Shown here one piece after another: positions 7,218-40,092 of a stretch of 64,000 nucleotides of DNA (position 1 is the stretch's first letter; each line of letters opens with the position of its first letter). Where the stretch lies: positions 1,994 through 65,993 of the forward strand of contig CAWALK010000018.1 in NCBI GenBank assembly GCA_963782915.1, written 5' to 3'. The position numbers and the translations under genes are program-made. Below the pieces are notes generated by a model. It was not told where the DNA came from. It saw nothing but the letters and a program-made list of their open reading frames with translations, and did no database searches. The stretch is from an uncultured archaeon (GTDB taxonomy: Archaea > Thermoproteota > Bathyarchaeia > Bathyarchaeales > Bathycorpusculaceae).

Positions 7218-10200
7218 TCACTTGTAGGTCCATTTACCGATTATTTTTTGGGGAGGCAAACGCACTGTGAACGTTGTGCCATTTCCTTCTATGCTTTCAA
7301 AAGTTACTGTTCCGTTTAATGCTTCAGTCATGCGCTTAACCACTGCTAACCCTAAGCCTTGACCTTTAGATTTTGTCGTGAACAATGGAGTGAAAAGCTT
7401 CGGCTTAACTTTATCAGGGATGCCTATACCGGTATCTTGAACAGTGATGACTGTGTCTTCTGCATCCAGATGCGCCCTCATGGTTAGTTGGCCTCCATTT
7501 GGCATCGCTTGAACGGCGTTAGAAACCAGATTCCCAAGAATGCGCTTTAATATAATGCTGTCAACCACAATTGTTTTAACAGGTCGTCTCGATATTGCAC
7601 GAAGCCTTGATGTTTTTAGGCATGTCTTTTCCTTGGAGCAAATTCTGTACAAAGGCTTCCAAGTCAATTTTTTGAGTTGCAGGATTAATCGTCTTAGCGT
7701 AATCTTGAAGGTCAGCTACAATCTTGTTAATGTAATCAACGTTCTTTTCTATCTCTTGCAGGCTTTCTAATACACTCTTTTTTTCTTCACTATCGGGTGT
7801 TGAATCCAATTCTGTTTTAGCCAAGTAAATGTCGCTAGTGATAGCCTGTAGTGGATTGCGAATATCATGCCCAACCATTCCAGCCGTCTCACCTATGGCA
7901 GCCATTCGCTGAGCCCTCTCAAGTTTTTTCCTATCATCAATATCAACAAAGGACAAAACGGCGCCATCTATCCTGTCGTCTTGCGTTATGTAGGGTCGAA
8001 TTTGCATTTCAAAATAATGACCTTTCTCATCTTTTACTTCTCTGGTGAAATAGCTTAGTTTAGAAAATACTTCTGAAATTATTTCGCTCAAGTCGTCAAC
8101 TATAATGTTCAGTTTGATGGTCGTTATTGGTAATCCAACTGTTGCAGGTGACAGATTCAGAGTTTTCTGTGCTGAAGGCGAAAATAGCCTAATCTTTAGA
8201 CTCTTATCGATTATGACAATAGCTGGACCCACGTTCCTATTTATGTTGGTTAAGTCATCGTTCAGCTGAGAAAGCGTTTGGTTTCGGTTCTTCACCTCAT
8301 CATTCAACGTTTTCAATTCTTCATTGCTAGACTGAAGCTCTTCTTTAGCTGTTTCCAACTCTTCGTTTGTGCTCTGCAACTCCTCATTACTCGACTGCGC
8401 CTCCTCCATAGTGGTTCTAAGCTCTTCGTTGGTTGCTTCCTGAGTTTCAATAATCCTCTGCACAGTTTGTTTAGTTGACTCCAATTCTTCCCTGAGCTCT
8501 CTATTTTGGCGGTCCTTAAGGTTTTCTCGACCTTCAGGAGAAATATTTAATTCCATCGTTTGGCGTAAAAGCTTCGCAGCTGAACTTACATCTTCGAATA
8601 ATAGAAGGAAAAACGGTGCCTCATACCGTTCAACATGTATGGGAACAACTTGTATGTTAACTGTTCTCTGTTCTCCAGCATATTCAAACCGCACGGCATT
8701 CTCTTTGACAACTTTTTTCTCTTTTTTTGCCCTATAAATTATCGTTTCGACTTCAGACCTTAACTCTTTGCGAATAATTTTAGCAAGGTTCAAACTTGCT
8801 AATCCAGATTCGGGCAATACATATGATGCTATATTTCCTCGAAAAATTAGAACATCCAAATCAACATTAACTAGCAAGGCGGCAGGAACATACTCGGTGA
8901 CTAACAAACGGTCAACCTCGTCTTTCAACTCTGCAAGGACATCTTTTCTGTCGGCTGCTTTACCTTCTTTAGGTTTAAAATATGGCGTTGATGCTTCCAG
9001 ACCAAAAGTGATACGGGGCGGTGCGATCTTCTTCGTGTAGATTGCAGCCCTTTTTGCTTACAGATTCAAATAATTGAGTGAATTTTCCAATACTTTCAGA
9101 TTGCCCTAAGACCAAAAAGCCACCTATTTTTAAGGCGTAATGAAGAGTCGGCACTACTTTTTCGTGTAGTTGTTCGTCAAAGTAAATGAGCATGTTGCGG
9201 CAGCTGATAAGATCCATGTTAGAGAATGGTGGGTCTGCAGTTATGTCTTGCTTTAGCGAAAACACACATATCTCGAATATTTTTACAGATCTGATAATGT
9301 CCGTTGAAGCTTGTGAAGAAATGTTTTAGTCGTTTTTCGGGTAAGTCGGTTTCTATAGTTTTTAGGTATATTCCTCGTCTTGCTTTTTCAACGTTTCTTT
9401 CGTTCACGTCCGTGCCGAAAATTTGAACCTGAATATTTGTTATGGATTTTTCTTCGAGGAACTCTTGTAGTGCAATTGCGAAGGAGTAAGCTTCTTCACC
9501 TGTTGAGCACCCTGGAATCCAGACACGAATGGTTTCATTGGGCGGGCGGTTTTTCACTAATTCTGGAAACACCGTTTCTTTCAAAGCTGTGAATGTTTCA
9601 GGTTCTCTAAAAAAACTTGTCACTCCGATTAGCATATCGTTGTATAGTGCTTCCAGCTCGTTTGGATGCTTCAGCAGGTACTCTGCGTAATCAGCCATTT
9701 TTTTAATGTTGTTGATAACCATTCGACGTGCGATCCGCCGATTTACGACGGTTTCTTTGTAGTGTGAGAAATCCACCTTGAAACTACTTTTTAGCATAGT
9801 GAATATTGCTTTTAAGGGTGTTCCCAATTCTAGCTTTGCATCATTTGGTTCAGTATCTTCTCTTGACGCGATTTCGCTTCGTGCTAGTTGAGGGTTATAG
9901 CGATTTTTTGTAGTTGTAAGGCCATCTGGTCTGGAGATAGAACAAAATCTGCAGCTTCGGCTGTAATGGCACTTTGGGGCATGTCACCATACTGGGCAGA
10001 ATTTGGAGTTTGTGCGAAAGTGATGCCTCCTTGAGCTTTGATGGCTTTTAGACCTTCAGTTCCATCAGAGCCTGTTCCCGAAAGCACGATACCTATACTA
10101 TGATTTTTCGAGTCCTGGGCCAGGGAAGCAAAGAAAGCGTCAATTGGTTTAACCGAAGACGTACCCTTTGGGTGAAGGGTGAGTAACTTGTTTTCCATGG

Positions 10201-10552
10201 TCAAGATAGTTCCGGACGGAATCACGTAAATATGGTTTGGTTCAACTGGTATCTTATCTTTCACTGTTTGGACGTGCATTTTGGTTAATCTTGAAAGAAT
10301 GTCGGATAGCATGCTTTCTTGGCCAGCCGCAAGATGCTGGATAACAACAAAAGACAAGCCGGTATCTGTTGGTAAATATTCTAGCAGACTTTTGAATGCA
10401 TCTAAGCCGCCGGCTGAGGCACCAATTCCAACTATGGGAATACCTTGTTTGTCTTGGTCAGAAGATTTCTTATTAGAACGCTTGGCTGCTTTTTTTTGGT
10501 TTTCGGGAATTTCGTTCCCCCCCCCCACAAAAGAATTGAAAGATGCCATCAA
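7218..10552 (-). CDS. CheB-CheR-PAS-histidine kinase fusion, copy 1 (frameshifted)
   Basis: CheB GASAGG/QH/SGTGSDG; CheR WIPGCSTGEEAYS, DLISCRNMLIYFD; EELQSTNEEL coiled coil; PAS; H-box GHDIRNPL; HATPase NLVSNAVQA, DTGIG, TTKSKGQGLGL. Confidence 0.9.
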
Positions 10553-11617: not shown

Positions 11618-11845
11618 TTAGACTAAAGCCTTCCTGTGAAAAATAACGATAGAGTCGCCTTCTTCCTTAACGTCCAAGTTACGCTTTTTGGCTACAGCCT
11701 TAATGAGTTGAGTATCTTTGGTTTTGATTCTAAGGATGGATAGTTTGGTTTCATCCTGTCGCTCAATAGAAACAGAATCCGGCGAAAGGTTAATGTCTTC
11801 ACCCAAAAGTGCCTTTAGGTAATCTATCGCGTCGTTTCGGTTCAT
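11618..11845 (-). CDS. Small hypothetical protein, paralog of 11341-11607
   Basis: MNRNDAIDYLKALL...SIVIFHR. Confidence 0.7.
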   Translation of the reverse strand: MNRNDAIDYLKALLGEDINLSPDSVSIERQDETKLSILRIKTKDTQLIKAVAKKRNLDVKEEGDSIVIFHRKALV

Positions 11846-11933
11846 TAATACCTAATTTAAGTATGCTTGTCTGTTCATTTAAGACTTGTTATGAGCACCA
11901 ATTTGAAAATTTTTGTTTTAGCCCAGCGTTGAC

Positions 11934-12081: not shown

Positions 12082-12945
12082 TTGAGTGAAGGTTTGGGCT
12101 GTGGGAAATGCAAGCGAGTTCATGAGCAGATAGCTCAGATTCTGCCTTTTCGGGTGCTGGAAGCCGCTGAGGGTAAGCCATTGCGGATTGCAGGCGTTGC
12201 TATGACTGCGGGCATGTCCCGTAACCACAACGTTTACACTTCTGAAGAGTTGGAGGCTTTTGCTCCTAAACTTGTCGGGGCACCCATCTATCTTGAGCAT
12301 GTCACCGTTGAATCAGCCATTGGAAAAGTTACTAACTGCGTTTTTGATGCCCAATCCAAGAGCTTGCGGTATGAAGCGGAGATTTACGACCCAACTATGG
12401 CTGAGAAGATCCGTCAGGGTTTGATTCAGCATGTGAGTGTTGGGGCAGACTACGATGCACTTGATACAGCCAACGTGCCGCATGGGTTGCATAACGCGGA
12501 GATGTCGCTTGTTGCAGTGCCCGGTATTCCCGAAACCAACATCCAAGTTTTAGAGGCTTTACGACAGAAGGGGGTTGGGGGTTTGGAAGAAAAAGACATT
12601 GAAAGTGTCGCTGAGAAAGTCGCTGCTAAGATCGGCGAGAAAAATTCCCTTGAAATTGAGGGTCTGAAAACAAAGCTTTCGGAAGCGGAAGGTAAGTTGG
12701 CGGCTTCTGAGGGTAAACTTGCCGAAGCCAACAGGACAGTTGAGCAGCTAAAGCAGCTTGTACCCGGTGTGGACTTGCTGAAGAATCCGCCTAAACTGAT
12801 GCCTGTCTCTGAAGCTGTCAAGATGGTTAAGGAAGCACTGCCTGCGCCAATGATTCAGCGTTCATGGGGACTTGGCCCTCAACGCATGTGTCAGGACCTG
12901 CAGCGTGTCGTCCAGAAACTTGAGACTAGGGCTGGTGGCAAGTAA
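12082..12945 (+). CDS. Prohead maturation protease with scaffold-like coiled-coil C-terminus
   Basis: GVAM...SRNHNVY...PIYLEH...HVSVG...EMSLVAVPGIP; coiled coil follows. Confidence 0.85.
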   Translation: MSEGLGCGKCKRVHEQIAQILPFRVLEAAEGKPLRIAGVAMTAGMSRNHNVYTSEELEAFAPKLVGAPIYLEHVTVESAIGKVTNCVFDAQSKSLRYEAEIYDPTMAEKIRQGLIQHVSVGADYDALDTANVPHGLHNAEMSLVAVPGIPETNIQVLEALRQKGVGGLEEKDIESVAEKVAAKIGEKNSLEIEGLKTKLSEAEGKLAASEGKLAEANRTVEQLKQLVPGVDLLKNPPKLMPVSEAVKMVKEALPAPMIQRSWGLGPQRMCQDLQRVVQKLETRAGGK

Positions 12946-13158
12946 ATGGCTGAGAAATCTGCCGAGGGAAAACTCCACGAAGTCGATGACACAGAAGCTG
13001 ACGCCGTTATCGAGTTTGCAAGCAGGGCAATTCCTCATAACGAGATGCTTGGCCGTGTTGTCCGCAATATGTACAAGCGGATTCAGCAGTTAGAAGCCCA
13101 AGTTAAGGACCTGCAAGCGAAGCCCAAAAAGGCTGCCGCTAAAGTTGGAGGTCCATAA
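12946..13158 (+). CDS. Small head-module hypothetical protein
   Basis: Abuts the protease stop codon; coiled-coil C-terminus. Confidence 0.55.
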   Translation: MAEKSAEGKLHEVDDTEADAVIEFASRAIPHNEMLGRVVRNMYKRIQQLEAQVKDLQAKPKKAAAKVGGP

Positions 13159-13236
13159 GTTTTGCTCACTTTTGTGGGGCTAGTAGCGCCAGGACGAACT
13201 GGTGTGAACGCAGAAACAATAGGGAGATTGATTTAG

Positions 13237-13662
13237 ATGACTGATTTAACTGGAAAATCTTGGATGGCTATAGGCGAAACTGACGATCCAAACGCTGTTA
13301 TAGAATCTTTTGAAGCGGCTGCAGGCATCACCAAAGGCTCACCGGTTTACTTGAGTGCAGACGATAAGGTTTCCGCCAGCCCAGGCGGAGACAACGCAAT
13401 AGGAATTGCAGTGAAAACCGTTTTGACTGGTCAACAGTGCCCAGTGCTAACCCGTGGGAGAGTCAAAGTGACGGCTGGCGGCGCTATAGCAAGAGGTACA
13501 GCGGTTTGCAGTGCTGCTGCTGGCAAAGTGATTCAACTTGTCGATCAAGCTGTTGACGAGGGCGGCGCTGCGAAATACACAATTTTCTTCAACCGCAAAC
13601 TTGGCTATGCACTAGAGACTGCTGCGCAAGATACCGACCTGCTGTTTATTGAGGTGGGATAA
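13237..13662 (+). CDS. Capsid cement/decoration protein (DUF2190-like)
   Basis: AAAGITKGSPV...AIGIA...VLTRGRVKVTAGGAIARG; directly upstream of the capsid gene. Confidence 0.75.
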   Translation: MTDLTGKSWMAIGETDDPNAVIESFEAAAGITKGSPVYLSADDKVSASPGGDNAIGIAVKTVLTGQQCPVLTRGRVKVTAGGAIARGTAVCSAAAGKVIQLVDQAVDEGGAAKYTIFFNRKLGYALETAAQDTDLLFIEVG

Positions 13663-14615
13663 TGAAGCCCAAACTCTACGAGTCATTGATGCAGAAAGAC
13701 GCTGGATTCAAAGAAGTCATGGAAAAACTCAAGCTGAAAACTGACCATCCATTCCTAAAGCGCTATGCGCTTATGGGTGTGAAGGAAGGCTTTTTCAGCG
13801 ACATGTCAGGCGCTCTTGGCAGAATGCATGATACGATGGTTGATGCTGCATGGCCTGAATTGATTGGCCGTAGCATAATCAACGTAATGCCAACCAACGA
13901 AGCCATGGAACGCTTCCCAATCGATGCAGGCGCAATTGCTTACGAATACGCTGAAGGCACTATTACCCGGCTCTCAGGCAAAAAAGCCTCAACTGTTGAC
14001 ATCAACGCAAACATTCTGGCAGACTCTTCAGATGAGTGGACAAGGGAATACCTTGAAGACGCATCTTGGAACGTCATGGACCGTGCAACACAGAACATCG
14101 GCAACGCTTTAGGAGTTAAAGAAACCGAGAAGATTCTGGCACTATACACTGCTGTTTTAGCTGCTGACTTAGCTACTGGCGCAGACCTTGCAGGCGGCGG
14201 TACTGTGATGAGTTGGACAAAACTGCTTAGCTTGTGGCATGCTGTTAAGTCTGAGAAGCGAAGAGCAACTGTTATCGCCCTAAACGATATGCAGGTTGCA
14301 CAACTCCTCAACGATAGCACTTTCACAAACGCACAGTCTTTACCCTCAGCACAAACCGACCTCGAAGCCGGCGTTGTCAGTGGCGCTTTGGGCATGAAGA
14401 TTGTTTCAAGCCCACTTGTCACCAACGGTGTTGCATTCGCCATCGATACACGTGTTGCCTCCGCGATGCTTCTGCGCCGAGACGTAACTGTCGAGGACTG
14501 GGAAGATGTCAAGAACGGCAAATACGGTGTCAGAGCCACAACTCGCTTCGGCTTAGGCGTCCTAGATTCCAAAGGCATTGCAAGAATGACAAACATCAAG
14601 ACGACAATCACTTAA
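13662..14615 (+). CDS. HK97-fold major capsid protein
   Basis: Size, position and C-terminal LLRRDVTVEDWEDVKNGKYGVRATTRFGLGVL pattern. Confidence 0.88.
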   Translation: MKPKLYESLMQKDAGFKEVMEKLKLKTDHPFLKRYALMGVKEGFFSDMSGALGRMHDTMVDAAWPELIGRSIINVMPTNEAMERFPIDAGAIAYEYAEGTITRLSGKKASTVDINANILADSSDEWTREYLEDASWNVMDRATQNIGNALGVKETEKILALYTAVLAADLATGADLAGGGTVMSWTKLLSLWHAVKSEKRRATVIALNDMQVAQLLNDSTFTNAQSLPSAQTDLEAGVVSGALGMKIVSSPLVTNGVAFAIDTRVASAMLLRRDVTVEDWEDVKNGKYGVRATTRFGLGVLDSKGIARMTNIKTTIT

Positions 14616-14631
14616 GCGGTGCATTCGCCCG

Positions 14632-14649
14632 TTTTTCTTCCCCTTTTTT
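14632..14649 (+). terminator. Possible oligo-T terminator after the capsid gene
   Basis: tttttcttcccctttttt pyrimidine tract shortly after the stop codon. Confidence 0.35.
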
Positions 14650-14680
14650 GGGTTATCAAATCATATCGGGGTCTAAGCAT

Positions 14681-16018
14681 ATGAGTAGCGTTTACAGAAA
14701 AATCCGTGAGGTCCTCTCCTATGCGCCTGTTTCAGGCGTGGCAAAGCCAAATGGCAGAGTGTTCTTTGATACTTCCTGCATTCCCCTAATTGATGTTATG
14801 AAGCTCTATGAGCGTGACCCAACCTGCAAGGCAAGCGTGGATCTGTTGGCTGCCTCCACAGTTGGCATGGGCTTCTACACTACCGTGGACGAAAACTATG
14901 ATAAGGCTAAAGAAGCCAAAGCCGCCGTGGATAATTTCTGCGAAGACATCAACTTGGACGGCTTGCTAAACGATATGGCTAAGCCGCTGATTGGCTGCGG
15001 AAACGATTTTTGGCTTAAATTAACTCCTGACAAACTAACCGAAACCTTGCGCATGCCCATAGATGCAGTGCAACGCATCGGGCTCAGTAGTGTTCCCAAT
15101 CTATAGCTTACCCTACAAAGTCACAGGTTATCAACTCAAGAACATTCCTATCGCGGGCAAAGCTCGAGAAATGAGCTTAAACCTGAAGCGGTCATTCACT
15201 GGCGCCTTAACGGCGATATTCCCTCTGGCTACGGCGTTGGCTTGCTGCAGGTGCTTTTGCACACGTTAACCGTTGATTCGGATAAGCGTCCGGCTGTTGC
15301 TTGGATGAAAGCCAAAATCGAGCGCATAATGCCCAAGATTTTTGAGAAGTATGCGGGACCTGACGTTTTGGCGATGTTGGAGGGCGTCGATGAGGCAACG
15401 GTGAAGTCGTTTGAGCAGGCCATCAAGAATCGGGATGAAGAGGGCGCTTGGCTATTCTACAACAAAAAAATCGATTTAAAGCCTGTCACGATTGACCCCC
15501 GAGCACAGGGCTTTGTTTACTACATCGACCACATCATTAATCAGTTCTATTTGGGCTTGGAAACGCCTCTGCCACGGCTTTTTAGCACTCCAGGCTTTAC
15601 CGAAGCATCGGCAAGGGCAGCGTTGGACTTGCAGGATATGCTCATAAAACCCGTCCAACGCTACATCAAACGTCAAGTAGAACGGGAACTTTTCTCGCCT
15701 ATTGTTGCTCAAGCTGGACTTGATTCGATTAAGGCTAAGGTGCGGTTGAATTATGGCAGCCCCGAAACTCCAGAACTTAACTCTGCTGACCTCATCAAAG
15801 CCGCTGAAACTGGGTTGATTCGAGCAGAGGAGTTCCGTAAGAACGCTATCAAGTTTGGCTGGGAACTCTGGGAACAGAAGCCTACCGCGGCGACAGGGCA
15901 ACAGCAGACGGTTAGTCTTGAGGGTTTGCATGGAAGAAAAGGCGCAGGCAAGTATCTTGTGGTGGATTTAGGGAAGAATGAGGAGTCTGCTAAAGTTGAG
16001 TCTACTGGGAATAGTTAA
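14681..16018 (+). CDS. Portal protein (frameshifted)
   Basis: LYERDPTCKASVDLLA...GMG; HWRL...GYGVG; LGLETP...EASARA...IKPVQRYIKRQVE. Confidence 0.8.
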
Positions 16019-16307
16019 GGCTGTAGCTGCTGTACAGTTGGTTGGTGAAGCAAAAAGCCGTATTCCGGTTGGGTTGCAAGGTTTAACTTTCTATAGCCAA
16101 AGGGATGAATGGGTTTTTTTGTCGAGTGGTCACCCCAATATGTGCGCTGATTGCGCAGACTGTGATGGTAATGTTTTTTTGGGAACGGAATTGCGTAGTG
16201 CTTTTCCATATCACACAATTTTGGACGAGAATATTATTGCTGCTTCTGTTCATCCTAATTGCTCGTGTTTGCTATTGAGGGCTTTTTCTGCGGGACGTTA
16301 CATGTAG
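15978..16307 (+). CDS. Small MuF/SPP1 gp7-like minor head protein
   Basis: HPNMCADC...HPNCSC motifs; follows the portal gene. Confidence 0.55.
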   Translation: MRSLLKLSLLGIVKAVAAVQLVGEAKSRIPVGLQGLTFYSQRDEWVFLSSGHPNMCADCADCDGNVFLGTELRSAFPYHTILDENIIAASVHPNCSCLLLRAFSAGRYM

Positions 16308-16500: not shown

Positions 16501-16517
16501 ACTCATTGTAGTGCCAT

Positions 16518-19500
16518 TTACCGTTTAGCTCTTGGGGGGAAACGTAAAATGAATTTTGTGCCTTTGCCTATTTCGCTCTCGAAAGTTATTTTGCCGCCTA
16601 ATGCCTCAGTCATGCGCTTGACCACTGCTAAGCCAAAGCCTTGACCCTTCGATTTAGTAGTGAAAAGCGGAGTGAATAGTTTTGGCCTAATTTCTTGTGG
16701 GATACCAACACCTGTATCCTGAACAGTTATGACAATATCGCCAGCATCCTTGACCGCATGAATATCAAGTTTTCCACCCTGCGGCATAGCCTGAACTGCA
16801 TTACTTACCAGATTACTTAAAATTCGCTTCAACATAGCTGGGTCAGCAATCGCCTTTTTCGCTTCTTTCTCGACTATGCATGAAGCGTCAATGTTTTTTG
16901 GAATACCATTATTAAGCAGCACTTCTTGGCAGAGCGCTTCAACATCTGTTTCCTGAACGGTTGGCTTGAGTGGCTTTACAAAGTCTTGTAGGTCTTGAAC
17001 AATCTTGTTAATGTACTCAACATTCTTCTCAATGCCTGCTAAACTTTCTTTCATGCCCTCTTTTGCTTCGCCTTCAGGCATCGAAGCTAAGTCAGTCTTA
17101 GCCAAATATACATCACTGGCAATTGCTTGCAAGGGATTACGAATATCATGCCCAACCATACCTGCAGTCGCGCCAATAGCTGCTAAACGCTCGGAGTCTT
17201 TGAGTTGACTTGGTTCGTTCTTCAACAAGCTTCTCCAAGTTCTTAGCATATTTATCAAGTGCCTCTTCAGCTTTTTTGCGTTTGGTAATATCTGTGAAGG
17301 ATAAGAATGCCCCGTCAATTTTCTTGTCTTCAGTTAGGTACGGTCGAATCCGCATTTCATAGAAATGGCCATCCAAACCCTCAACTTCTTGACTAACAGG
17401 AGTTAACTTATCGATTACCTCCGTTATCATCTTATCCAAGTCTTGAATATGAACTCCTGGAGTTATGTTGGCGATGGAGCCCCCAACATCGGATGGCGAA
17501 ATTCTCAAAAGTTCTTGGGCTGCAGCAGTGAAACGCCTTATCCTCAGGCCACTATCAACGATAACCACTGCGATGTCAATGTTGGTTTGCAGATTTGCTA
17601 AGTCATCATTTAGGCGACCAAGAGTCTGATTGCGGTTCTTAAGCTCCTCATTTAAAGTCTGCAGCTCCTCGTTGCTTGACTGCAACTCCTCTTTAGCTGT
17701 TTCGAGCTCTTCATTTGTGCTCTGCAACTCTTCATTGCTCGACTGAACCTCTTCCATAGACGACCGCAACTCCTCATTGGTTGCTTCCTGCCCCTCAACA
17801 AGCGTCTGCAAAGACTGCTTAGTTGCCTCCAAATCCTCCCTAAGCTCACGAATCTGACGATCCTTAAGACTCTCTACCTCGCACAGGCGAAACTGGAGCT
17901 TCAACTTCGTTGTCTTGAATGCAGATCATTTGAACGGTGTTTCGGTAAACAATACAAGGTAGAAAGGTTCGTCGTATTTCGGTGTTTCTAATGGTCTTAT
18001 CTCTATGCTAACTGTTTTTGGTTGCCCTTTTTGTTTAAGCGCACCGTTTCTTTGAAGGCTTTCTTTTCTTTCTTTGCTCTATAAATGGCAGTCTGAATTT
18101 GTGACCTCAATTCTTTTCGAATAATCTTTGTTACGTTAAAACTCGCCGCTCCTGATTCAGGTATAAGATAAGGAGCAACATCTCCACGAAAAACCAGTAT
18201 ATCCAAGTTATTGTTTACCAACAAAGTCGCTGGACCATACTCTGAGGTTATAAGATGGTCAACTTTATCCCCTAAAACAGTCAGCAGATCTGCTTTTTCA
18301 ATGCGGTTTAACTGATCTTCTTCGTAGCAGTGGAATAAAGGCTTCATTAAACAACATGTTGTGGCTGGGCTTGCTTCTTTCTGTAAATTAAGCCTTTTGT
18401 AGTAATTGGTTCAAACAAGTATTGGAATTTGCCAACACTTTCAGATTCTCCCAAAACTAGAAAACCATTGGGTTTTAATCCGTAATGGAAAATTGGCAAT
18501 ACTCTTTCGTGAAGATACGAGGTCAAAATAGATGAGAACATTTCGGCACATGATGAGATCTAAGTTAGAGAAAGGCGGATCGCTTGTTATGTCCTGCTTT
18601 GCAAATATGCACATGTCCCGGATGAGTTTTGTGATTTGGTAATTTCCGTTTTGCCTATTGAAAAAACGTTTTAGTCTATTTTCGGAAACGTATGTCTTCG
18701 ATAGTTTTTGGATATATTCCTTGACGAGCTTTCTCAATATTCTTTTCATTCGCATCCGTACCAAAAATTTGAACCCGTATCTCAGGCATGACTTTTTCTT
18801 CTAGGAATTCTTGAATTGCAATGGCTAAAGAATAGACTTCTTCGCCTGTTGAGCACCCCGGAACCCAAACACGGATGGATTCATCGGGTGACCTGTTTTT
18901 GATAAGTTCAGGAAAAACTTTTTCCTTCAAAGCCTCAAAAGTTTTTGGTTCTCTAAAGAAACTTGTCACGCCTATTAGCAGATCATCAAACAAGGCCTGA
19001 GGCTCATTTGGGTGGGTCCTGCAGATACTCGATGTATCCTTTCATGTTTTTGGTCTTATTTATGACCATGCGACGTGTAATGCGTCGGTTTATGGTTGTT
19101 TCTTTGTAGTGCGTAAAATCTACCCCGAAAGAAGTTTTTAGCATCATTATAATTTTTTTCAAGTCAGATTCTACTTTTTCTGGTTTGGTGTTTTTGTTTC
19201 AGAAGGAATGAGTTGAGGGTGATGGGCGATTCTCACTAGTTCTTTTGCTATCTGTTCTGGGGAAAGGATAAAATCGGGGTTTTCGGCATGCTATGGCGTT
19301 TTGGGCATGTCGGGGTATTGCGCTGTCTCTGGGTCTTGTGCGAAGGTTATTCCGCCTTCAGCTTTAATTGCTTTTAATCCTTCGGTTCCGTCATTGCCAG
19401 TTCCTGACATGACGATTCCAATTGCTTGGGTTTTTAGTTCCGAAGCTATGGAAATCATAAAGTCGTTGATGGGTTTAAGAGCTAAACCTTTGGGAACAAG

Positions 19501-19833
19501 CTTTAGGCAACCGTTCTTCAGCGTCATTGTTGTTCCTGGAGTGATGACGTAAACGTGGTTTTTTTCAACTTTCATGCCATCTGTTACTTGGAGAACCTTC
19601 ATTTTGGTTGACCGTGAAAGGATTTCGGGCAGCATGCTTTCTTGTCCAGTAGCTAGATGCTGGATAACAACAAATGACATACCCGTATCAACGGGCAAGT
19701 TCTCTAGCAGTTTCCTGATGGGGTCTAATCCGCCTGCAGAAGCGCCAATCCCAACAATCGGAAACTCATACGCTTTACCTTTGCCTTCAAGGGAAGCAGA
19801 TTCATCGAAAGTAGTTTTTATTTTGCTTGCCAT
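16518..19833 (-). CDS. CheB-CheR-PAS-histidine kinase fusion, copy 2 (frameshifted)
   Basis: Same domain order and motifs as copy 1 (GASAGG, GCSTGEE, EELQSTNEEL, GHDIRNPL) but clearly divergent in sequence. Confidence 0.9.
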
Positions 19834-19971
19834 AAGTTACCCATCTAGCTATTATGCTCTAATAATCTCGGTTCTAATTAATATTTAAACTTCCCTGAAT
19901 AGAACCTAAATTGAGCAGATAATTTAATGGAAAAATAAGCAGAAAAGATATCGGAGCTTGCACCTATTGGG

Positions 19972-20314
19972 TTAAGTTTTTTTATTTAATTCTTTTTTTG
20001 ATTCATCTATTTCCTTTTGGTGCTCCTTTGTAAATACATCAAGAAGGCGAATGGCGACTGGCGCAGCATCCTTTTCACTGTAGATACCCTTCTTTGTGTT
20101 TTCATGGAGCGTCTTGATAATTGAACTTTCAATTGAGTAATGATCTTTTCCAAACGTACTTTTTAAGGCTTGGTGAAAGGCATAAAGGTTGTTTGGAATA
20201 TCTTGGGGCTGAATTTGCATCTTTTCTTAGCTCACTGTAAAAGCGTTCTTTCTCAGCCAAAGACGATAATACCCTATCGATCACTTCAACCATTATCGCA
20301 TCAGAATTCGCCAT
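19972..20314 (-). CDS. DUF3227/NitrOD5-like archaeal signalling output-domain protein (frameshifted)
   Basis: EVIDRVLSSL...FY..L....IQPQDIP...F..ALKSTFG.....IE..IIKTL pattern. Confidence 0.5.
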
Positions 20315-20588
20315 AGAAATTGCCAACTTAAAATATGGCCATTTAACATACAAAAATGTTTGCGCGAACAGAAAACAGTTAGCGCCCAATGCCAGCACGC
20401 TTCTATGCCATATGCGCGCCAGTCTCTTTTTCCAAGCGCTTATTCATCGAAAGAAGTCCTTGGGGCTAAAGTCTAAAAAGGGGAAAATAGTATAAAAGAC
20501 GTCGCCTAGCTGCGGTTCCCTATTAGACTTGAACTATCGGCCTATTAATACAAGAAAGAAGAGTTTAGTTGTTCTTCGATTTTTTGCT

Positions 20589-20651: not shown

Positions 20652-21005
20652 TTGGCTGCGGTTACGGTTGAGGACGTTTGGGATACTCTGAATGTTGGCG
20701 ATTCGGATATTTCTGAGGCTAAAGTTCTCAAGATGATTAAGCGTGCCGAAGTGACTTTAGAGCTTGAACTCAACGTAGAAATTGACTATGCAAACTGTTC
20801 GGATGCCAAAAAGGAAGCTATAACGGTTTTGGCTGCTATGTATGCGCTGTGCTTCTTGACTGGCGGGTCAACTGTTGGGTTGAACTTTAGCGTGGGTGAC
20901 CTCAATGCTAGTCAGTCTTCGAAGTTGCCAAGCTTCGATGTGCTGCAAGGCGAGTTTTCCCGTCTGCTAGACAAGCTAAAAACGCCCTACATTGGGAGGG
21001 CTTAG
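20652..21005 (+). CDS. Head-tail connector (gp6/gp15-like)
   Basis: VTVEDV...SEAKVLKMIKRAE...helical core and GLNFSVGDL hairpin; first gene of the neck operon. Confidence 0.7.
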   Translation: MAAVTVEDVWDTLNVGDSDISEAKVLKMIKRAEVTLELELNVEIDYANCSDAKKEAITVLAAMYALCFLTGGSTVGLNFSVGDLNASQSSKLPSFDVLQGEFSRLLDKLKTPYIGRA

Positions 21006-21008
21006 CCC

Positions 21009-22634
21009 ATGGGCACGGTTCCAGATGCCTACTTTCAGTTTGTGATGCACTATGCGCCCTACTACTACGTTGTTCCCACTAACTTGGCTGCGGATGCGGC
21101 TGCTGGGCAGAAAAACGTAACTGTTGCGGACGGTTCGAAGTTTCAAGCTGATTTTCCCGTTGAAATCAAGGATTCCGCCCATAGCGAATGGAGCGAAGTT
21201 GAAAGCGTTCTTGGCAACGTTGTAACCCTCAAGAACAATCTAGCCAACAGCTACTTTATTGCAAAGGCTGGGTTGATGGAGGGTCCTGACCCTGCGTTTG
21301 GTCGTGGCACTTTTGCCGCTGCTTTCGCCATCGAGTTTCTCTGTGAAGCCTACTCGGCCCCTCAATTCTCAAGCCAACAAAGCAGACATACTCGCCAAAA
21401 TTGTGGAGTTAGCCGATTGGCTGCTGACACAGCAATGCATCGACCCTGCGAGGACTGCGTATGGCGGCTTCAAAAGCGGGGAGTCATCGACTGACTATTG
21501 GAGTATTGATGCTGGCAGGGCTATTCCTGCATTGCTGAAGGCTTACGCCGTGACGTCAACGGCTGCCTACTTGGACGCGGCTAAGTTGGCGGGCTACCCT
21601 TTCCTGTACAACATGCAGCGTCTACCCGTGGTTTTGGGTTTGCATGACCGCTACTATGGCGGCTTTGCTTCCTACGTTACCATCGGTGACGGCTGGGAGG
21701 CGTCGATGTATGTCGAGAACCTCTATTGCCTCATAGGCTTAAAGATGCTCGCCGACACCTACGATACCGCCAACGCTCCAACCTACAACAGCGGTGATGA
21801 GTGATGCGGTTGCTTTCCTTCGGGACGGTTTGGAGGGGCTTTGGCTCTATTTCTATCCGTTGCCCTCTGGGGATGGCGCTTGGCACCGGGTCGGCTTGAA
21901 TAACACCGAGGTTTATGATGACCCGATAAGCTTCGCCCTGCTTGGCTTGTACACTTATGAGGGTTGGACGGCTAGTTGCCAACGTGTCTATAACGCCGTG
22001 CAGAGCATCAAGGCAAGCGGCCAGTATCCCGCCTATGTTCCTGATGTCTGCTGGCCTGGCTACATAGACGTGGTTTCAAGGTTTCCCGCCTGCAGCTACT
22101 ATGACGGCGTCACGATTGGGATTCTTTGGAAAATCCGCAAAGACCGCGACCCTCCAGGCTACAAGTTAGCCCACGACATCGCTGAGAAGTACGCTGATGA
22201 ATTCATGGATTGGGGACCAATCTTCACCGACTATAGCCCAATTACGCCTGCCAAAGCTATGGCGAACGTAAGCTGGATCGCCCGAATGTTTCTCAACTAC
22301 ACGGAACCATCAACGCAATTCACTAAAGATACTCAAAAGCAAGGGTGAAGCGGTTCTGCTTTATCCAGTGCGGCAAGCTGTGGAAACCGTTGATTACGGC
22401 GACCCTCTTGAATTGCTCGCCGTGGTTTCTCAGCTTAAAGCTGAACAGGTTCTCATAGAGCCCGGGTACTACACAAATGACTATTTGGCGTTCTACACGT
22501 TTCTGCCCGTGCGCAGTCACGACAAGATAAGGCGTCAAGGCGAGGACTACGAGGTGCAGACTGTGTCGCCTTTTGCTTTTGCTAATCAGCGGCTCTACTT
22601 CAAGAGCACGGCAAGGAGGCTGCTTACCAGTTGA
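21009..22634 (+). CDS. (alpha/alpha)-toroid glycosidase-like domain probably fused to a C-terminal head-closure domain (frameshifted)
   Basis: LADWLLTQQ...YGGF...IDAGRAIPALLKAY helical repeats; removing one A near 22330 joins QFTKILKSKGEAVLL...DKIRRQGEDYEVQTV. Confidence 0.55.
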
Positions 22635-38654: not shown

Positions 38655-38918
38655 ATGATACAGCGCACAGCTCCTTTAGCCTCCGCTATAACCCGCAACC
38701 GCAATCTCTCCGTTGAAGAACTAAAAAGCCTCAACCTACCGCTAATATTCCAAGGCGACACTGTCACCATCGAGAGAAGCATAGACGGCTGGAAACTCAG
38801 ACAACCCATCACCATAGAACTCAGCAAAATCTTAGCCGCCAAAGAAAAAGGACTAGTCGACTACATCATACGCTCCTGCCTAAACGACCGCCCAAGCACT
38901 AATCCCCTACATCTTTGA
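38655..38918 (+). CDS. Hypothetical protein upstream of integrase
   Basis: ORF in operon; boundaries uncertain. Confidence 0.35.
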   Translation: MIQRTAPLASAITRNRNLSVEELKSLNLPLIFQGDTVTIERSIDGWKLRQPITIELSKILAAKEKGLVDYIIRSCLNDRPSTNPLHL

Positions 38919-38928
38919 ATACCAAAGC

Positions 38929-40092
38929 ATGCTAAAAATGGCCCGACACTTTCTACGACACTGCTCAGCATCACACGACAGCTGCCTACTCTACACAAGT
39001 AAAGTCAGAAAATACGCAGAATGGCTTGGCCACAACCCCGACCTAATCATCCAAGACGTCAAACCCGTCGGCGCAATCCCCGACCCCATAAAAGTACAAA
39101 ACCACTGCGGATTCCTAAACGACTACCTAGCACACCTTCAAGACTCACGACCTTAAACCAGGCGCAGTCAGCGACTACATCAAAGCAGTAAAAACCTTCT
39201 ACCGCACCAACGGCGTAAAAAAAATTGAACTCGACGAACCCCTAAGCCGCAAAGTAACATACAAAGACCGAGCACCAAAACCCGAAGAAATCGCCCTAAT
39301 GCTAGACAAAGCCGCTACACGAGAAGCATTCATCGTAGCAGCCATCGCTTCAGGCGGATTCCGAGAAGGAACCTTTGCAAAACTCAAATACCGACACGTA
39401 AAAGAAGACCTCGAAGCCGGAAGAGTACCCAATCCACATCCATGTTGAAGCCGAAATAACCAAAGGCAAATACCACGACTACGATACCTTCATAAACGCA
39501 GAAGCATGCCGCCTCCTAAAACTCTACATCCAAGACAGACAACAGGGCGGCAGATCAATGCCACCAGAAACCCTCACAGACGAATCCCCACTAATCAGAA
39601 ACAGCCACAACACAGACAGAATCTTAGGCGTAACCGAAAAAACCATCAGAAAAATCGTCCACAACTTAGCAGTTAAGCGCAAAAATCGCAAAGAAACTAC
39701 CAAACAGCTGGATGTACAGCGTCAGAACACATAGCCTAAGAAAATTCTTCAGAAGCCAACTCAGCACAGCAAAAATCGACACAGAAATCGTCGAATACAT
39801 GATGGGCCACACAATCAACACCTATGAAGACGTCCAAAGCTTAGGCATAGAAACCCTAAGAAACCTCTACGCATCAGCCGGGCTTGCGATCAGACCAAAG
39901 ACACAGGTAAACCGCATTGACCAACTCAAAGAAATCATACGAGCATGGGGAGAAAACCCTGAAGAAATCCTGTCAAAAGATGCAGTCTTTAGAGGCAACA
40001 TCACAGAAACCCAAGAACAACACCAGAACCATCAGCTATCACTTCTTGCAGAGCAACTCAAGCAGATTATACGGAAGGAGGTAACAAAATGA
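38929..40092 (+). CDS. Tyrosine recombinase/integrase (frameshifted)
   Basis: Catalytic R (SGGFREG), K (TKGK), HSLRKFF, MMGH, Y (TYEDV). Confidence 0.9.

Follow-up and report, generated by a model that had tools for sequence, protein, structure and literature searches.

We analysed a cassette of two genes in a Bathyarchaeia genome; the window is the whole stretch of 64,000 nucleotides (nt) that was examined, and positions refer to it unless another locus is named. The larger gene encodes a CheB-CheR-PAS kinase, here called copy 2, at 16518-19833 on the minus strand within a Bathyarchaeia (soil) tailed provirus. Its domain order in Pfam is CheB_methylest, CheR_N, CheR, PAS_10, HisKA and HATPase_c, with a coiled coil before PAS_10, and it is about 1102 amino acids (aa) long after 15 one-base insertions and deletions (indels) in the assembled sequence are discounted. 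Intact relatives have 1102-1104 aa and align over the full length with 81-84% aa identity. The cassette covers 16506-20394 (3.9 kb) and consists of an upstream region of about 80 nt, a small partner gene and the kinase; it is antisense to the late genes and occupies a variable slot between the portal/MuF and head-completion genes. A second kinase in the same provirus is called copy 1. The features are as follows.

7218-10552, minus strand: copy 1, of the same architecture and a different clade, with an ortholog (P0243, 96% aa) in the same slot of provirus L010
14648-16307, plus strand: left flank, comprising the portal gene (14648-16018) and a 109-aa MuF-C-terminal-like gene (15978-16307)
16506-16517, minus strand: downstream 12 nt forming the cassette boundary, common to all cassette copies and present twice in provirus L041, around a REC gene
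16533-17162, minus strand: HisKA and HATPase_c (PF00512, 27.7 bits; PF02518, 103 bits), with the H-box GMVGHDIRNPL
17284-17601, minus strand: PAS_10 domain (PF13596, 81.6 bits)
17602-17850, minus strand: coiled-coil linker, with EEL(Q/R)S(S/T)NEEL heptads in the translation that are invariant across the kinase family
18347-19162, minus strand: CheR_N and CheR, an S-adenosylmethionine (SAM)-dependent methyltransferase (PF03705, 52 bits; PF01739, 88, 57 and 21 bits)
19300-19755, minus strand: CheB methylesterase domain (PF01339, 163 bits), with the motifs GASAGG, VIQH and GTGNDG
19972-20314, minus strand: small partner gene, 113 aa, all-helical and distantly NitrOD5-like, with its ATG at 20314 (AF2, family alignment A1)
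20315-20394, minus strand: upstream region of about 80 nt, common to viral L004 and cellular L039 (blastn limits, end alignment)
20652-21005, plus strand: right flank, a 117-aa head-completion/connector-like gene that is kept in relatives

Copy 2 retains its catalytic motifs, namely the Ser, His and Asp of CheB, the GCSTGEE SAM site of CheR, the H-box His and the N, G1 and G2 boxes. GASAGG, VIQH, GTGNDG, GCSTGEE, GHDIRNPL, NAVQAM, DTGVGI and GQGFGLA are all invariant columns in the alignment of the kinase family (A3). In these respects it resembles the CheB/CheR fusion proteins of KEGG K13924, with which it shares six domains in the same order at or above the Pfam cut-offs, the catalytic motifs and invariant coiled coil, and 81-84% aa identity to annotated members. 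Unlike those proteins it is encoded by a virus, runs antisense to late genes, has a small partner gene and is interrupted in the assembly.

Taking all of the evidence together, we consider it quite probable that 16506-20394 is host-derived cargo resembling a phage moron, captured separately from copy 1 and kept under purifying selection in the virus with its reading frames intact.

Frame breaks in the assembled genes

As assembled, copy 2 consists of at least 8 frame fragments owing to its 15 one-base indels, a feature that was absent from the initial annotation's account of this DNA. The CheR_N and CheR region is scattered across four of the fragments, with CheR matches in three of them. We aligned the DNA of copy 2 with that of its viral ortholog in L041, viral L004, cellular L005 and cellular L039, all of which are intact or near-intact, and in this five-way alignment the indels resolved into 11 insertions and 4 deletions, 15 of 15 private to the window. 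Read-through of the TAG at 19291 and the TGA at 17926 by pyrrolysine or selenocysteine was considered and rejected, as both codons lie in short out-of-frame stretches between indels; the apparently in-frame TAG has a deletion on one side (near 19300) and a compensating insertion on the other (near 19289). The small partner gene is in two frames because of one additional base near 20221-20226. Other genes of the provirus are affected in the same manner: copy 1 needs about 4-5 frame changes as assembled, the terminase has 2 frame breaks, and in the portal gene a +1/+2 pair of insertions encloses a 42-nt out-of-frame stretch. When the window is compared with L010 (95.6% nt identity over 7.6 kb), there are 17 insertions and 2 deletions, mostly of 1 nt and often outside homopolymers, and they affect the terminase as well as the kinase.

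The substitutions in these genes tell us how the kinases have been evolving. Those private to copy 2 are 31 synonymous versus 15 nonsynonymous, and the pairwise ratio of nonsynonymous to synonymous rates (dN/dS, or omega) is 0.169 against L041 (dS 0.194), 0.158 against L004 and 0.144 against L005. On its own branch, copy 1 has a synonymous to nonsynonymous count of 18:9, similar to the 22:13 on the branch of the intact L010 gene. For the genome background we used housekeeping proteins from related loci as tblastn queries and counted 4 frameshifts in 23 genes (25 kb), or 0.16 per kb, two of them in one P-type ATPase. A cellular segment of the window was dropped from this count because it proved to be multi-copy, its best match reaching 83% identity. 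At 32 frame junctions outside the provirus, there was a +1 bias of 22:10. The genome assembly comprises 3.28 Mb in 25 contigs, and related records are 'MFD' long-read metagenome-assembled genomes. Because the substitutions in copy 2 are still constrained, when 15 real frameshifts would mean a long period of neutral drift, and because housekeeping genes across the genome show the same +1-biased frameshifts, the indels are very likely long-read consensus errors, and the real gene would be intact.

The strongest alternative, which we consider unlikely, is that copy 2 and the whole provirus are a decaying relic, with genuine frameshifts and with kinase and partner genes that have become pseudogenes without present function. 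It would account directly for the breaks in copy 2, the small gene, copy 1 and the terminase and for the compensated pair in the portal gene, and also for an indel density of about 2.5-4 per kb in the provirus, which is more than 10 times that of the 25 kb of housekeeping genes. Such a relic is hard to reconcile with the strong constraint on the substitutions of copy 2, with indels that are nearly all of 1 nt and biased toward insertion, unlike natural decay, and with the same signature in housekeeping genes such as the P-type ATPase. There is also no large deletion or rearrangement in the window relative to L041 or L010. For the excess of indels in the provirus and in multi-copy genes, mixed reads from variants and modified viral DNA are both possibilities.

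Further examples of interrupted genes were noted elsewhere in the genome. One-base indels with an insertion bias are numerous at 3330-26000 of the window and occur throughout the genome. Indel clusters occur in multi-copy genes, with 4 at 38900-39700 of the window and others at C19:107411-108018 and C18:265597-265887. Three overlapping open reading frames at 21009-22348 correspond to a single intact frame of 540 aa in L041 (16862-18484) and L043 (15525-17147); this split, too, is likely assembly noise. At the 5' end of copy 1, where the N-terminus is Gly-rich, a run of 10 C at 10517-10526 (8 C in L010) is likely the site of a length error or slippage. A second related capsid gene (G000 C11:135467-136415, 62-65% aa) is also in two frames, and the genome contains at least 2 related proviruses. 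Since the frameshifts in the window are very likely for the most part assembly noise, genes reported as 'split' or 'frameshifted' in this genome need to be re-read.

A variable cargo slot in related viruses

A portal-based scan gave 132 related loci, 80 of which were fetched. Among the relatives, the second provirus L041 lies in a closed chromosome of 2.68 Mb that was assembled independently, and its sequence is 90-94% identical (nt) to the window provirus on either side of the slot. L041 has a kinase in the same slot and orientation as copy 2 with 92.8% nt identity, and therefore the kinase is older than the split of the two viruses. Judged by the omega of 0.17 between these orthologs, copy 2 is shown to have been under purifying selection while carried by the virus. 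The initial annotation had suggested selection on the virus, and both this ortholog and the recurrence of kinases in two slots among close relatives of the window provirus agree with that suggestion.

The two cassettes differ in their other genes. L041 has a 117-aa REC gene 3' of the kinase and lacks the small partner gene. In L041, about 30 nt (the 3' end of the kinase plus 12 nt) are directly repeated at 11817-11846 and 12375-12404 and bracket a 530-nt segment with the REC gene; the window has a single copy of this repeat and no REC gene, which looks like a deletion or insertion through short-repeat recombination. The L041 kinase also differs by an in-frame insert of 372 nt (about 13168-13504) that separates PAS_10 from HisKA and that the window, L004, L005 and L039 all lack.

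Other relatives have different contents at the same site. L010 has unrelated cargo in the slot of copy 2 (an AAA_31 protein together with proteins of 511 and 155 aa). In the close relative L043 the slot has another pair of small gene and kinase (63% and 58% aa), oriented the other way from the window cassette. L092 has a kinase of the copy-1 type (91%). Sister proviruses have either a copy-1-type or a copy-2-type kinase, never both. The L043 pair, a small gene and CheB-CheR kinase of a third type, lies after the portal gene and is co-oriented with the late genes (L043:11365-15047), and L043 also has a 573-aa PAS kinase in the slot between terminase and protease (L043:5383-7104).

A 1055-aa PAS-GAF kinase, found at a constant distance in about 20 of the more remote portal-related loci, was considered as further viral cargo and not counted, since its MFS, ChrB and GNAT neighbours indicate a host locus beside the element. 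At these loci (L064-L119), a PAS-GAF-GAF kinase of 1055-1308 aa and a REC gene, followed by GNAT, ChrB and MFS genes, lie about 4 kb upstream of the portal gene, and no terminase of the L010 type was detectable there. All of these loci may represent a single ancient head-gene element that has been inherited vertically at a constant chromosomal position.

The limits of the cassette are well defined by comparison with L004 and L039, where homology runs from about 80 nt before the small gene to 12 nt past the kinase stop, with identical limits in both. L004 is a virus that is otherwise dissimilar at the nt level; its cassette of the copy-2 type (87.6% nt) is in a different slot and orientation, co-oriented and between GNAT and terminase genes. 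Identity varies along the cassette. Identity to L004 is 96-98% in the small gene and in the 3' 1.3 kb of copy 2; over its central 1.8 kb, copy 2 has about 89% identity to L005 and 93% to L041; and the 5' 1.4 kb of the L004 kinase is 96-99% identical (nt) to cellular L039. These mosaic identities show that alleles of the cassette have been exchanged between cells and viruses. The cellular operon at L039:9521-14483, on a 3.31-Mb contig, encodes a 116-aa small partner, a 1102-aa CheB-CheR-PAS kinase, a 67-aa Cys-rich protein and a 123-aa CheY-like REC protein, and it is the probable source type for the viral cassette.

Within the upstream region, an A/T-rich TTAAAT(G/A)G box (TTAAATGG box) about 40 nt before the ATG of the small gene is a putative promoter. 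At the cassette ends we found no terminal repeat or common motif, and TTAGCCCYAAGG is not enriched there. A scan of the cassette for bacterial-type promoters and terminators was uninformative.

In these respects the cassette is like the morons of phages (Hendrix/Juhala model): it forms a discrete unit that includes an upstream region of its own, sits between conserved head genes in opposed orientation, is absent or replaced in sister viruses, and is host-derived. Unlike usual morons, it is a 3.9-kb signalling operon of two genes, and related viruses repeatedly take such cargo in two slots.

We also considered that the cassette could be something other than viral cargo, either an island of host genes or a chimera made in assembly that lies inside provirus-like DNA. 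Bathyarchaeia have a greatly enlarged kinase family (more than 8000 candidates, and about 55 kinase loci within the present genome), copy 2 is a mosaic between alleles, and the indels cluster in multi-copy genes, as expected from mixed reads of paralogs. We nevertheless find this very improbable, given that the same gene with the same junctions is in the closed L041 chromosome, where the virus flanks are 93-94% identical, that the viruses L004 and L043 have related cassettes between bona fide virus genes, and that the host genome has no close cellular copy to mis-join.

Two independent captures of kinases

Copy 1 and copy 2 are 58.7% identical in their frame-joined aa translations and about 68% identical at the nt level, and the longest exact stretch that they have in common is 20 nt. 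This identity and the Pfam order bear out the initial annotation, which described copy 2 as having the architecture and orientation of copy 1 with many aa differences. The joined kinase translations retrieve thousands of homologs when used as queries. In a tree of 96 kinase proteins, the two copies are in opposite deepest halves with a support of 99, and dozens of cellular homologs lie between them.

The closest matches of the two copies are different proteins. Copy 2 is most similar to P0001 (84% aa), P0006 (83%) and P0005 (81%), and copy 1 to P0243 (96%) and P0103 (84%). P0243 belongs to the related provirus L010, where it is in the slot between terminase and protease that copy 1 also occupies. 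The nearest non-viral neighbours have housekeeping contexts, which include P-type ATPase, PMSR and similar genes around P0103, and glycosyltransferases, HMG-CoA reductase and CCA-adding enzyme around P0005, P0006 and P0007; P0290 adjoins a NiFe hydrogenase on a 3.3-Mb contig. Because each viral copy nests among cellular homologs in opposite halves of the tree, the two kinases are shown, on the evidence of their sequences, to be two independent captures from the cellular gene pool with no duplication between them.

The claim that the copies are not a recent duplication is thus upheld by the tree. A duplication within the virus, in place or segmental and followed by divergence, would suit two kinases of the same architecture on the same strand, 6 kb apart and flanking the head module, but it is extremely improbable given the low mutual identity, the closer relatives that each has elsewhere (96% and 84% for copy 1; 93% nt and 84% aa for copy 2), the deepest split in the tree with its intervening cellular homologs, the presence of only one type or the other in sister proviruses, and a partner gene that accompanies copy 2 alone. 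It had also been proposed that the copies flank the head module as imperfect direct repeats. Both are indeed on the minus strand and flank 12082-16307, but with 68% nt identity and exact matches of at most 20 nt, a functional meaning for such repeats is unsupported.

The small partner gene and a possible role for the cassette

The small gene spans exactly the positions given in the initial annotation, 19972-20314. It has an intact homolog, P0121, with 97.6% nt identity, and within its close family of 21 proteins there are His and Glu residues that do not vary (alignment A1). The AF2 model of the protein has five helices and a predicted local distance difference test (pLDDT) score of 95.8. Neither the frame-joined window protein nor P0121 has a match in Pfam, PF11537 (NitrOD5) giving none even at E<=10, and PF11537 matches none of the 21 close family members. 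A profile search with A1 found 99 remote homologs, 88 of which were scanned; 11 of these have sub-threshold matches to PF11537 (14-20 bits against a cut-off of 27, E 1.7e-4 to 0.04). We therefore keep 'NitrOD5-like' as a name for what appears to be a fair resemblance, the link being transitive and below threshold. The gene had been called NitrOD5/DUF3227-like and likened to an output domain; the resemblance holds only in part, through this transitive link.

The associations of the family are with kinases. Among the 88 scanned remote homologs, HisKA was found in 15 and HATPase_c in 10, and in the proteins of about 350 aa the small domain is N-terminal and followed by HisKA and then HATPase_c in 6 of 6. 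The small gene is directly upstream of a kinase in L004, L006, L007, L039 and L043, and in cells this operon sometimes extends to a CheY-like response regulator. Distant homologs of the small protein are present in 65 of 401 Bathyarchaeia genomes. Gene order across these loci shows the pair of small gene and kinase to be a conserved cellular operon. Adjacency to kinases and fusion with kinase cores point to a kinase partner, or an N-terminal kinase domain, rather than an output domain of response regulators. The host itself has an operon (G000 C12:264837-269141, minus strand) with a 147-aa homolog of the small protein (hhalign 92%), a 1167-aa multi-PAS histidine kinase and a 150-aa REC protein, and the pairing of small protein and kinase is a theme of the host as well.

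For NitrOD5, Galperin et al. 2018 (PMC5847659) describe stand-alone and REC-fused forms. Like NitrOD5/DUF3227 (PF11537), a lineage-specific archaeal 'output domain' (PMC5847659), the small protein is about 100 aa long, all-helical, usually stand-alone, multi-copy in archaea and linked to two-component systems, and the two have in common the motif IPxxxxxFxxALxxxFGxxxxxIExxI. Unlike NitrOD5, it was seen without REC fusion, either encoded upstream of a histidine kinase or forming the N-terminal part of one, and its family is widespread in Bathyarchaeia, not Thaumarchaeota. A phosphotransfer role of the histidine phosphotransfer (HPt) type, suggested by the invariant His, was dropped because H47 is unconserved in the wider family. 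A sequence search of the family against PDB gave no match, and a fold search against BFVD gave no meaningful match. The best PDB fold match of the model is PH0832 of Pyrococcus horikoshii (2p9x; Foldseek probability 0.98, template modelling scores 0.54/0.62, E 0.22, 14% identity), which is likewise small, helical and uncharacterised and has no sequence-level match to the small protein.

From these observations a working of the cassette can be proposed. Because the cassette runs antisense to the late genes with an upstream region of its own, expression in the lysogen is likely, and it would be transcribed there from its own presumed promoter. The small protein may bind the kinase core and gate it in trans, while the PAS domain would sense an intracellular cue. 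The kinase could then phosphorylate one of the host's 17 stand-alone REC proteins, and the CheB and CheR domains, which have no REC of their own, could methylate and demethylate either their own EELxSxNEEL coiled coil or the 5 methyl-accepting chemotaxis proteins of the host. Candidate targets for both activities are present, since the host genome has 5 such chemotaxis proteins and 17 REC loci. The net outcome would be that the virus adds to a sensory channel of the host or overrides it.

Several points weigh against an intact, host-derived cargo that works in this way. The reading of the indels as errors is inferred from sequence patterns, and their excess in the provirus, more than 10 times the genome background of 0.16 per kb, would also fit a very recent inactivation. 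The cassette is mosaic, so recombination could blur the vertical inheritance of copy 2 and the L041 kinase. The REC gene of L041 and L039 is lacking in the window cassette, the best host REC match to the L039 regulator is 44%, and no cognate regulator was identified in the host. In the literature that we searched, we found no experimentally studied member of the kinase family.

Virus-borne two-component sensors are rare. A search of IMG/VR with the small gene and the kinase gave one marginal fragment only, and the literature that we searched on viruses of Bathyarchaeia and of archaea has no mention of virus-borne kinases. Here one provirus has two kinases of different clades, and its relatives add further kinases in the same slots, one of them also with a REC gene. 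The purifying selection between viral orthologs argues that this cargo is in use. A broader proposal, which we put forward only tentatively, is that a clade of tailed viruses of Bathyarchaeia habitually captures sensor-kinase operons (comprising a CheB-CheR-PAS kinase, its small NitrOD5-like partner and, in some cases, a REC protein) and keeps them under selection as its own sensor of the environment or host state, which might time induction or re-wire host taxis, and that the small protein could act in trans on histidine kinases, as an input or gating subunit of a type not recognised before. The conserved adjacency and fusion to kinase cores provide a first functional lead for this family of small NitrOD5-like proteins. 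If the cargo is indeed used, the cassette would offer a handle on how the viruses of an uncultured and abundant archaeal class sense or steer their hosts.

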